DNA of 64,000 nucleotides from positions 7,552,001-7,616,000 of the forward strand of contig OZ240241.1 in NCBI GenBank assembly GCA_965198115.1. The letters run 5' to 3'. Positions 9,568 to 13,781 of this stretch are shown here, one piece after another; the first letter of the stretch is position 1, and each line of letters opens with the position of its first letter. Source of the stretch: Candidatus Latescibacterota bacterium (GTDB taxonomy: Bacteria > Latescibacterota > UBA2968). Below the pieces are notes generated by a model. It was not told the origin of the DNA. It did not search any database and saw only the letters and a list, made by a program, of their open reading frames with translations. A program made the position numbers and the translations under genes.

Positions 9568-10130
9568 GTGAGGCCGAGGCCGAGGATCCCGAGCGTCTCG
9601 CACTCGAGCCGACCGGCGTCCGGCAACGGTTCCTGTCCACCTACATCCAGCAGGTGGAGCAGATGGCATCGGCGTCGCCGTCCGAACAGGCGCTTCTTTC
9701 GGCGGCGATCTACCTTTGGAACGACGACTTGACTCGATCTCACGAGATCTGTCAACGCTTCGAACGGTCGATTCCCGACGCCAGCTTCATACACGGGATC
9801 GTTCACCGCCGCGAGCCCGACTTCAACAACGCGCGAGTATGGTTTGGTCGTGCCGAGGGCATTCGCGGCGGCGAGGCTATTCGCGATGCCGTGTTGGCCT
9901 TGCTTCAGCGTGTCCTTCAGATGCCCGACTACGGGGCCGCCCGGGACACGGCCTTCGCGTTGATTCAGCATTTGCAGAAGGTGGGCACGTGGGACCCCGT
10001 GCGTCTGCTGGCGTTGTGCGAGGAGGGTGAGTGGAAGGAGGACGCGGTTCTCTGTCGGCTTCTCGAGGAGATTCAGGAAGCAGAGCTTCTGGCCGCGATT
10101 GAAGTCATCGGATCACGCTCCGCGGCCTGA
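9568..10130 (+). CDS. Conserved hypothetical protein (HRREPD motif), fused in frame to the methyltransferase stump
   Basis: LWNDDLTRSHEICQ...HGIVHRREPDFNNARVWFGR, recalled as a standalone uncharacterised family. Confidence 0.6.
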
Positions 10131-10640
10131 GCGAGCATCGGCGGCGGGTCCCCGTTTGAGCAGGAAGGGTAGAAGGACGGCGGAGAGGACGATTTCGGGG
10201 ATGAGATAGGACAGGTTGTAGAGAGCGGAGTAGACCCACACGGTCGTACCTTCGGGGGCGTAGCTGCCGAAGAAGACGATGCCCGACAGGAAGTGCGCGA
10301 TGAATCGAGCGCCTCCGCCCACGAGACAGGCCACGACGACCGTAGCGGGGAAAAATCCGCTGATCCCGAGGACCCCGAAGGCAAGGGGGTAATCGAGCAC
10401 GACCTGTATCGGGTGATAGATGTGGGCGCCGAGCAAGAGCTGGATGAGCCCGCACAGGATTCCAGCGCTGACGGCCGGGCGGACACCGCCCCAGATGGCG
10501 AGGTAGAGGATAGGGAGGGATTCGAGAGAAATCGAGCCGCCGTAGGGCAGGCGGGGGAGCGGGAGCGCCTTGAGAATCAGGCCGAGGACGACAGCGAGCG
10601 CTGCCGTGGTCGCGATGAGGGTCAGGTCTCGAACGCTCAC
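10113..10640 (-). CDS. thiT: ECF-type thiamine transporter S component ThiT
   Basis: LPYGGSISLESLP, HPIQVVLDYPLAF, RFIAHFLSGIVFFGSYAPEG, VWVYSALYN. Confidence 0.88.
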   Translation of the reverse strand: MSVRDLTLIATTAALAVVLGLILKALPLPRLPYGGSISLESLPILYLAIWGGVRPAVSAGILCGLIQLLLGAHIYHPIQVVLDYPLAFGVLGISGFFPATVVVACLVGGGARFIAHFLSGIVFFGSYAPEGTTVWVYSALYNLSYLIPEIVLSAVLLPFLLKRGPAADARSGRGA

Positions 10641-11434: not shown

Positions 11435-12689
11435 GTGGCTGAAGAAAACGGATCGGAAACCAACGGCACCATTTTGGTCGCGCAATGTGAGCCACAGGAC
11501 CAGCATTTCGCGACGACGCTGCTCAGCACCGTCGGAAAATATTCGATCGTCGAGGCCAACTCTTCGACAGGGGTGATCCGGGGGCTGGTCGAGGGGCCGG
11601 ACCTGATCCTGGCCGATCCGCTCATCCCGGGAGACTTTCTTAGGATCGTCGAACTCATGCGACGCATGCCCAAGCTCAATCACGTGGCCATCGTGGCGTT
11701 GAGCGGCGGCCTGAGCCAGGTGGCCCGGTGTTCGGGGAAGGGTTTCAATGGTTTCATCGAGAAACCCTTCAAACCCGATACCTTCCTGTCGCAGATCTGG
11801 AGGATCCTCGACGCGCAGCCGCCCGCACCCGGCGACGGTAGTCCGGCTGAGCTGAACGTCGAGATCGACAAGATCGAGGGACTACCGACTCTTCCAACCG
11901 TCTACGCGCAGGTCGAGGAGCTGTGTGCCGATCCCGACGTCAATGCTGAAAAACTGGCGAAGGTGATCGAATCCGACCCGTCGATCACGATGACTTCTCA
12001 AGTTGTCCAACTCGGCGTTCTTCGGGTTCTCGCGAGAAATCAGGTCGATCGTGGATGCCGTTTCGCTGCTCGGGAACGAGACCGTAAAGAACGCCGTGCT
12101 GAGTATCTCCGTGTTCGAGGCTACGATGGATATGGAGACGTCGGCCGGTCTGGATATGAAGTCTTTCTGGCAGCATTCGACCGCGGTCGGCTCGGTCGTC
12201 CGGTTCGTGGCACATAAGATGAAGATTCAAAGGGAAGACAGCTTTACGGCGGGAATTCTACACGACATCGGTAAGGTCATTCTGGACTCCCTGTTCTCGG
12301 ACGTATATAAGAATGTGCTGGAGGCGGTAGAAGGACAGAAGATCTCGATTCTGGAGGCGGAAGAGCGGGGCATCGGACTCACGCACGCGAAACTGGGCCA
12401 GGAGTTGGCAGAGAATTGGGGGATCCCTGGGGGGCTGGCTCAGGCCATCCTGAGTCACCATCGACCCAAATCCGCCGACTCCGATGCCGAACTGGCCAGC
12501 CTCGTGCACATCGGCGACGCGTGTGCGCGCAATCTGGGATTCGGATCGGGTGGAGATCCCTACGTGCCATCGATCGACGCCTTCGCTTTCTCACACCTGG
12601 AGGTGAGTGGGAGCAACCTGATCGAATGGGAAGAAGAAATGAAGCAGGTCGTCGAGAAAGACATGGCATTCCTCTCCGCCATCGGGTAG
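11435..12689 (+). CDS. Receiver-like + HDOD domain signalling protein (frameshift near 11990)
   Basis: GFIEKPF receiver end; LPTLPTVY, VIESDPSIT, NSAFFGFSREI, FWQHS, AGILHDIGK, ILSHH. Confidence 0.85.
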
Positions 12690-12694
12690 AACAG

Positions 12695-12733
12695 GAAAGG
12701 CCGTCATCCTTCAAGGACGACGGCCTTTCATTT
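12695..12733. terminator. Intrinsic terminator between convergent genes
   Basis: GAAAGGCCGTC-ATCCTTCAAGGAC-GACGGCCTTTC followed by ATTT. Confidence 0.75.
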
Positions 12734-12758
12734 CATACTCTCTGCTCTCTGTGCGACG

Positions 12759-13031
12759 CTATTTGTGCGCAGCCTCCCAAATCGGCTGGATTTTCTCGAT
12801 CAATTCTTCGTCGGTGGCCGACGATCGGACGATGTCAGTGAACTCATCGGCCGATATGCCCAGTTCCTCCAGGAACCTTTTGTCGGCTCCTCACGGATAA
12901 ATGTAATCACCGATCGTTCCCCGTAGAAACGCGCGTGCCTTGTCGGCGATTCTGGGTAACCAGGGAACACCGCCCATGATGAGTGGCCGACTGCGCGGTC
13001 GAAAGTCCACAGACTCACTCAAGCTGTCCAC
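12759..13031 (-). CDS. DUF5069-like small protein with in-frame UGA at codon 47; putative selenoprotein, not in the ORF track
   Basis: MDSLSESVDFRPRSRPLIMGGVPWLPRIADKARAFLRGTIGDYIYP(U)GADKRFLEELGISADEFTDIVRSSATDEELIEKIQPIWEAAHK; family resemblance continues on both sides of TGA 12893-12891; RBS GGGGTG. Confidence 0.8.
12850..12890 (-). promoter_or_regulatory. Bacterial SECIS-like hairpin immediately 3' of the UGA
   Basis: GCCGA/UCGGC lower stem, GGUUCC/GGAACU upper stem, UGGA apical loop starting 19 nt after UGA. Confidence 0.65.
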
Positions 13032-13076
13032 GTGTGCATCACCCCGCTTTCCTGTTAATTCGTCGATTCCCAGAAG

Positions 13077-13104
13077 AATCTAAGCCCTTTGTGGGGCGTG
13101 TCAA
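13077..13104 (-). promoter_or_regulatory. sigma70-type promoter for the DUF5069-like gene
   Basis: TTGACA-16 nt-TAGATT on the minus strand. Confidence 0.55.
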
Positions 13105-13178
13105 CCGCTCCCCCCGCTCTATCACGTTTACGTGTTGTGCCCCGTGTGTCTCCGCCCTGTGATGCGACCCTTCCGCGT

Positions 13179-13781
13179 TCATTCGGCGGTGAAGGTCGTC
13201 AGTGTCGTCTCCCCATAGGCTTTGCTGCGCGTCTGTGTGAATCCCTCGTGACTCGTGGGGAGAACCAACGAACCGTGGTGCTGGACGAGGATGCGTGTGT
13301 GCGAGACGCAAAGGGGAGAGGCAACGAGCGCTTCGAGTGCGGCCACGGCTAGGGGCACGCCCCGCGACTGCTCGTGGTAGGGCGGGTCGAGATAGGCGAC
13401 GTCTACGGCGCTCTCGAACGGGGGCGAGGAAAGGAACGCGAACCCGTTCTGACGGCTCAGCCGCACCCGCTCGGTGATGTTCCATTCATCGATCAAGTTT
13501 TTGACGAACGCGTAGCGCCGCCCGTCACGTTCGTTCATGACGACGTCGGCACCGCGGCTCCACGCCTCGAGCCCCATCTGACCTGACCCTGCGAACAGGT
13601 CGAGGAACAGCTTGCCCTCGAGGGCGGGCCCGAGCGTGGCGAAGGCCGCTTCCTTCACGAAGTCGGACGTGACCCGCGCGTTGCCGTATCGCTTGTTGTT
13701 GAAAGGGATTCTGCGACCCCGCAGACTGCCCGACACGATCCTCAAGGTTTCCTCGTCCGATCCAAGATTCTCCCTTTCCAA
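13179..13781 (-). CDS. rsmD: 16S rRNA m2G966 methyltransferase RsmD family
   Basis: LRIVSGSLRGRRI, FLDLFAGSGQMGLEAWSRGA, YLDPPY, KAYGETTL; exact start uncertain. Confidence 0.88.
   Translation of the reverse strand: MERENLGSDEETLRIVSGSLRGRRIPFNNKRYGNARVTSDFVKEAAFATLGPALEGKLFLDLFAGSGQMGLEAWSRGADVVMNERDGRRYAFVKNLIDEWNITERVRLSRQNGFAFLSSPPFESAVDVAYLDPPYHEQSRGVPLAVAALEALVASPLCVSHTRILVQHHGSLVLPTSHEGFTQTRSKAYGETTLTTFTAE

Follow-up and report, generated by a model that had tools for sequence, protein, structure and literature searches.

In bacteria, SelB carrying Sec-tRNA(Sec) binds a hairpin and inserts selenocysteine (Sec) at a UGA codon. Among proteins made in this way, formate dehydrogenase (fdhF/FdhA) and SelD are the closest described counterparts of the gene reported here. 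They have a UGA at a Cys-equivalent site, a hairpin with a loop G 16-37 nt downstream and selA, selB, selC and selD in the genome, and the present locus is alike in these features, although the protein families are unrelated. The bacterial SECIS (bSECIS) model, as given in the available portion of PMC13188914, has an apical loop of 3-9 nt on an upper stem of 4-16 bp, a G in the first two loop positions that is mostly followed by G or U, a UGA-to-loop spacing of 16-37 nt and a minimum free energy of at most -7.5 kcal/mol. In fold, the nearest system is PDB 3omd, a 145-residue Leptospirillum rubarum protein of unknown function, which resembles our protein both in fold and in its Cys/Sec column. 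Compared with 3omd and the full DUF5069 domain, our protein has only the first half of the domain, and Sec in place of Cys. Literature searches for 3OMD and for the Leptospirillum rubarum structure found no description of its function.

The window (the whole 64,000-nucleotide stretch analysed) carries a short DUF5069 gene on the minus strand that, with its UGA read through, extends for 90 codons from GTG at 13031 to TAG at 12759. The frame contains exactly one in-frame TGA, codon 47 (12893-12891, minus strand), predicted to encode Sec at the conserved Cys column of DUF5069. This frame is missing from the table-11 ORF list; an earlier note on this DNA had quoted its sequence, and the coordinates 13031-12759 were confirmed. 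The promoter and ribosome-binding site proposed there were also recovered. In a consensus scan, the sigma-70-type promoter candidate TTGACA-16-TAGATT (13104-13077, minus strand) was the sole match in 12500-13400, against 0.3 expected from shuffles, and similar -35/-10 pairs were seen by eye upstream of the gene in several close relatives. The candidate ribosome-binding site GGGGTG (13045-13040, minus strand) lies 8 nt 5′ of the GTG start, where relatives have purine-rich sites. The terminator that the note had placed after the TAG was borne out only in part. A strong hairpin (12696..12728, z -7.6, no strand assigned) lies between the DUF5069 gene and a convergent HDOD gene, and many relatives have a typical bidirectional terminator at this position, but here the U-tail is short, and the consensus scan listed no terminator at this site. 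This hairpin is probably a terminator common to the two genes. From the promoter and the hairpin, the gene would be transcribed as a single-gene unit in the window lineage.

The convergent response-regulator/HDOD gene (11435-12689, plus strand) is split by one frameshift near 11992-11994. The gene is whole in relatives L037 and L040, and the frameshift in the window is either an assembly indel or a real lesion. A ThiT-type thiamine transporter gene lies at 10113-10640 (minus strand); no TPP riboswitch reached the Rfam gathering score anywhere in the window, nor did Rfam give any other match there. On the upstream side, the neighbour is an rsmD-like methyltransferase gene (13179..13781, minus strand), given for context only, which adjoins the DUF5069 gene in part of the order and is not thought to be a functional partner. 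Neither ORF clustering around the loci nor a Pfam scan covering 89 of the roughly 110 neighbours selected found a conserved operon partner, and no redox context was seen among the neighbours. The synteny was lineage-bound only, with rsmD-like and HDOD genes, or with UPF0182 and pheA in Poribacteria. In the latter (L060, L069 and others), the Sec gene lies between a UPF0182 membrane protein gene and pheA on one strand with very short gaps, and may be co-transcribed with them. Fusions to cupin, glyoxalase, DUF2249, methyltransferase and other domains were rejected as evidence of function, being scattered and in several cases resembling frameshift run-ons. Neither neighbours nor fusions decided among the readings of the chemistry discussed below.

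The read-through protein matched Pfam DUF5069 (PF16798) with 66.8 bits against a cut-off of 27 (E=2.8e-18), in agreement with the family named in the note. The match spans model positions 4-74 of 133, and the C-terminal half (about 75-133) is absent; by sequence, the window protein is a short DUF5069 subfamily and not a full-length domain. In a phmmer search, U47 was aligned on the Cys of 3omd (E=7.3e-11). Among the best 150 of 501 DUF5069 representatives, the column at residue 47 holds Cys in 109, Ser in 14 and other residues in 17, and the record ends exactly at this column in the remaining 10. The UGA thus occupies the family Cys position, as the note had proposed. Non-Cys residues (31/140) are mostly Ser (14), Thr (4) and Gly (4). 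Near-invariant residues are R27 and K31 (146/147 each), R33 (137/147), D50 (127/140) and also D30, acidic residues are conserved at D30, D50 and D74, and the local motif around Sec is Y-x-Y/F-P-U-P/G-x-D.

An AlphaFold2 model, made from a 26-sequence alignment with Cys placed at residue 47, had a mean pLDDT of 88.9 and four helices, one of which begins at residue 48 (48-57). When the model was searched against 48,161 chains, 3omd gave Z 10.9 with an rmsd of 2.1 over 81 residues, followed by a next match at Z 3.8; no chain besides 3omd reached Z>=5 among these chains, from which uniqueness of the fold does not follow. Foldseek also returned 3omd (E 3.7e-3, TM 0.76 on the query), with zero matches at E<=0.001. 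No NCBIfam model (June 2026) matched the window protein at E<=0.1, and 26 family members gave weak, scattered NCBIfam matches only. The same genome has five further DUF5069 genes (L085-L092), none with an internal stop. One of them is a triple repeat in which only the middle repeat keeps the Cys, and repeat proteins of this type are also found elsewhere in the class and in Poribacteria.

We then examined whether relatives keep the UGA. In a phylum survey of 168 genomes, 126 had a match at E<=1e-14, and 119 orthologue-grade rows (E<=1.2e-23) were counted by hand; the weaker rows were longer paralogues. An in-frame TGA was present in 104 of the 119 orthologues and absent from 15. The codon position was checked in fetched loci (L007-L132), from which identical copies and the paralogue loci L093, L111 and L112 were removed; the aligned codon was TGA in 76 and TGC/TGT in 29 of the 105 distinct genes. 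Among metagenome loci (the best 80 of 537), it was TGA in 48, Cys in 32 and nothing else; because the genomes are kin and the gene sets overlap, these codon counts, and the hairpin counts given below, are not independent. The closest named matches are mostly from Latescibacterota, and the named set has the TGA form in Latescibacterota and Poribacteria and the Cys form in Chloroflexota, Bacillota and Eremiobacterota. The TGA is therefore not a private nonsense mutation, the alternative that the earlier note had raised against itself. The removed locus L093 is a triple-repeat DUF5069 gene (2154000-2158000 of its contig) with a TGA that looks like a nonsense change or an error; lying outside the Cys column, it was left out of the counts.

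The Sec machinery accompanies the TGA form. A search of the host genome for selA, selB, selC and selD found all four, each above its curated cut-off, with selA and selB at 3.587-3.590 Mb and tRNA-Sec adjoining. In the phylum, selA was present in 102 of the 104 TGA genomes; of the two without it, one is 80% complete and has tRNA-Sec, and the other is 81% complete. In the named set (38 loci), selA was found for 18 of the 20 TGA loci, and for the other two both tRNA-Sec and selB are present. Most genomes with the Cys form also had selA (12 of 15 for the phylum, 12 of 18 for the named set). The gene is accordingly required here, yet its presence does not distinguish one form from the other, and it was rejected as a predictor of Sec or Cys. 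In both the host SelD (4008933) and formate dehydrogenase (1088597) genes, an in-frame TGA precedes a hairpin with a loop that starts with G and is closed by CC/GG pairs, the same closure as in the window hairpin. When the whole genome was scanned for TGA codons with such a hairpin, SelD and the window DUF5069 gene were recovered; the other candidates printed were apparent off-frame noise, and one that was examined further was dropped. Elsewhere in the host genome, 20 tRNA genes lie on one strand within about 2 kb (2870558-2872531), their isotypes duplicated at other sites; tRNA arrays are often located on mobile elements.

The bSECIS-type upper stem-loop lies at 12862..12877 (minus strand), with a 6-bp stem and a UGGA loop (12871-12868) 19 nt after the UGA. 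A lower stem, with outer limits at 12850..12887 (minus strand), is predicted in the host genome and is not conserved in relatives. Thus, of the two-stem hairpin described in the earlier note, the loop, its spacing and the conserved upper stem stood, whereas the lower stem did not prove to be a conserved element and the stability was modest. Compared with the available description of the bSECIS model, the 4-nt loop, the 6 bp, the loop G of UGGA and the 19-nt spacing all lie within the model; the two-stem fold has -14.6 kcal/mol and the upper stem alone -5.8, so that the outcome against the limit of -7.5 kcal/mol depends on the segment folded. Taken alone, the hairpin shows only modest stability (z -1.7 to -2.2), and the minimum-energy structure of a 59-nt segment is a competing one. 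Support for the hairpin consequently rests on its conservation.

The UUCC-UGGA-GGAA hairpin was found in 75 of 76 TGA genes and in 0 of 29 Cys genes. In the metagenome loci, it was found in 43 of 48 TGA genes and in none of the 32 Cys genes, the five misses being a form with a five-base loop. As a background, the hairpin follows 302 of the 251,905 TGA triplets of the host genome, a rough rate because the hairpin rule was composed after the window gene and SelD had been seen. After removal of an inserted codon in four genes, codons +6 to +9 read TTC CTG GAG GAA in 49/49 TGA genes, whereas invariant residues elsewhere vary synonymously. Covariation, which the note had named as a check, was also observed in the flanking pairs. 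Across 43 distinct rows, 14 cells of the three flanking pairs had both partners changed (from G-C to C-G or A-U, from A-U to U-A or G-C), a number reached by 0/500 shuffles, and slid controls gave 3 or fewer such changes. Two of the five covariation measures, pair-count and pair-type, were equalled by 49 and 30 of 500 shuffles, respectively, and the outer two pairs were broken in 18 and 10 of the 43 rows. The four core pairs were constant in all 43 rows; this invariance reflects sequence constraint and not covariation. Variants of the element coupled to an amino-acid change, with U-G for the core U-A (FLEG) or with the five-base loop (FLDG), were seen among loci L121-L124, L129, L130 and L169-L176.

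With U on the Cys column, the sel genes in the genome and both TGA and hairpin kept by relatives, we consider it highly probable, on sequence evidence, that UGA codon 47 is read as Sec. The Sec-containing DUF5069 protein proposed in the earlier note thus stands as a prediction. SelB with Sec-tRNA(Sec) would bind the UUCC-UGGA-GGAA hairpin and put Sec at codon 47, and the product would be a 90-residue helical protein with one selenol.

For the role of this residue, the reading we favour, at about an even chance, is that Sec47 is a single selenol nucleophile at a helix start, redox-active and re-reduced from outside. In the model, Sec47 stands just ahead of the predicted helix 48-57. The helix end, together with R27, K31 and R33, would keep it as a selenolate, and the site formed by these basic residues would bind an anionic substrate such as a peroxide, a persulfide or an oxyanion. 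Oxidised Sec47 would be recycled by an outside reductant, which would be needed because the window protein lacks any further Cys. Of the 76 Sec forms, 33, including the window protein, have no second Cys; 26 have one at position +24 and 17 have one at -8, and no form has both. An obligatory resolving Cys was rejected on this basis, and no CxxU, UxxC or UxxS/T motif was found in the sequence and alignments. Against the redox reading, the Ser, Thr and Gly residues found at column 47 would also fit a structural helix cap.

Among the alternatives, it is unlikely, though still worth weighing, that Sec47 binds a metal or a cofactor, for example Cu, Zn, Hg or Fe-S and perhaps jointly across a dimer, in a small chaperone or sensor. 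The protein is small, has a lone Sec/Cys and conserves the acidic D30, D50 and D74, and fusions with cupin or DUF2249 domains occur in some of the distant Cys members; moreover, ligand binding, mostly of metals, is predicted for about a fifth of selenoprotein families in the available part of PMC13188914. However, the most conserved residues, R27, K31 and R33, are basic, so an anion fits better than a cation. There is also no second conserved Cys or His, and none of the 89 scanned neighbours handles metals.

Somewhat less probable is a one-shot acceptor or carrier, a selenoprotein whose Sec47 would take an alkyl, sulfur or other electrophilic group without turning over by itself. The lack of an obligatory resolving Cys would suit such a protein, as would the distant Cys member L083, which immediately follows a glyoxalase gene and is accompanied by a divergent MarR gene, and the protein records with glyoxalase and hydrolase domain fusions. 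These contexts are isolated and confined to distant Cys members, however, several of the fusions resemble frameshift run-ons, and no conserved transfer partner was found.

We also doubt, a little more strongly, that Sec is inserted at a residue that acts mainly as a helix cap without special chemistry, Sec and Cys simply drifting. Known selenoproteins place Sec at functional sites, and retaining a UGA and four frozen codons in two phyla would be costly for a mere cap. In addition, Cys at column 47 is invariant in a short Cys set of 48 sequences, which was hand-picked mostly for having Cys. What the helix cap would explain is the C-x-x-D pattern at the helix start, the Ser/Thr of distant members and the repeated appearance of Cys forms in genomes that still have selA.

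The remaining alternatives deny Sec insertion altogether. If the TGA were a true stop, the gene would make a 46-residue peptide, or would be a pseudogene or an assembly error, which is very improbable. Public protein records do end at the TGA codon (3/13 and 10/150), and the neighbouring gene is frameshifted in the assembly. In contrast, the frame continues past the UGA without a stop for about 35-55 codons in the genes extracted, and this part can be aligned with Cys orthologues that are intact. In 42 TGA genes pN/pS was 0.22 before the UGA and 0.40 after it, indicating purifying selection on the downstream half, and the stop codon at the site is always TGA and never TAA or TAG. The TGA also recurs in contigs assembled from two runs of a single sample, which span 12400-13400 with zero letter differences and no TGC or TGT at the codon, although this sample is possibly the source of the window, and the agreement is then not independent. 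Decoding of UGA as Trp, Gly or Cys by a variant code or leaky readthrough is the least probable alternative of all. Three database proteins do carry Trp at the site, but one of them (P0005) is otherwise identical to the TGA-bearing locus L011, so that its Trp was put there by the gene caller, and none of the genes seen had a natural TGG at this codon. The host genome shows no sign of UGA reassignment (tables 4 and 25), with TGA terminating 1653 of the 2922 frames that are at least 400 codons long, RF2 present, and tRNA-Sec as the sole tRNA with a UCA anticodon, leaving none for Trp or Gly.

The Sec and Cys forms are interleaved in the trees. In a quick, weakly resolved protein tree (117 rows, 94 columns), all 69 Sec rows fell in one clade of 85 (SH-aLRT 93) together with 16 Cys rows, and the Sec/Cys label required 9 changes, at least 3 of which were forced by strong branches. 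In a DNA tree made without the Sec codon and the hairpin codons, the Cys genes L015 and L017 lay inside four nested, strongly supported Sec clades. A topology that makes these two the sister group of the Sec genes in the same genus survived the AU test (p 0.50), and the nesting in the wider Sec clades was unaffected. The genomes of L015 and L017 keep selA, and in L017 all 12 bases of the hairpin core are retained and the adjacent pair is broken. These results support at least one recent reversion from Sec to Cys and suggest several, and the tree is compatible with a single origin of Sec in the short DUF5069 proteins. Sec-to-Cys changes are rare in bacteria according to the available portion of PMC13188914. 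We propose tentatively, and at somewhat less than even chances, that DUF5069 may be an unrecognised small all-helical thiol/selenol redox class unrelated to the thioredoxin and AhpD folds, whose short form gained Sec once in a lineage common to one Latescibacterota class and Poribacteria and returned to Cys several times in Sec-making genomes, sometimes leaving a relic SECIS.

The predicted protein adds to the bacterial selenoproteins a family whose fold matched only one unstudied structural-genomics entry here, and for the widespread DUF5069 family it points out the residue that is likely functional. Because Sec and Cys forms with about 70% identity occur naturally, the chemistry can be tested without culturing the host. 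Close Sec/Cys pairs in one genus, one of them with a relic hairpin, offer a natural series on when bacteria abandon Sec. The Sec gene is also systematically mis-called in protein collections, where it is cut at the UGA or read with Trp at the site. The surprise is limited, because the decoding machinery is well known and over a hundred such families have been listed.

In line with the note, DUF5069 is absent from Table 1 of a 2026 inventory of 119 families (PMC13188914) and from four supplements of PMC12013277; the accessible parts of PMC13326102, PMC13745706 and PMC12828279 were compared as well. A full-text literature search, which did not extend to subscription journals and current NCBI records, returned no publication with DUF5069 or PF16798. 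Thioredoxin-fold and AhpD/CMD selenoproteins are, like the window protein, small and have Sec predicted at a helix start, and the window protein likely shares their thiol-type chemistry. Unlike the window protein, they have a UxxC/CxxU motif; here, a second Cys is optional in the family and variable in place. In Pfam, the window protein had no match to thioredoxin-fold or AhpD/CMD families, and such chains were not among the VIA-align matches listed, an absence that leaves kinship possible. Taken together, the short form of DUF5069 is well supported as a new candidate selenoprotein family that uses the known decoding machinery.
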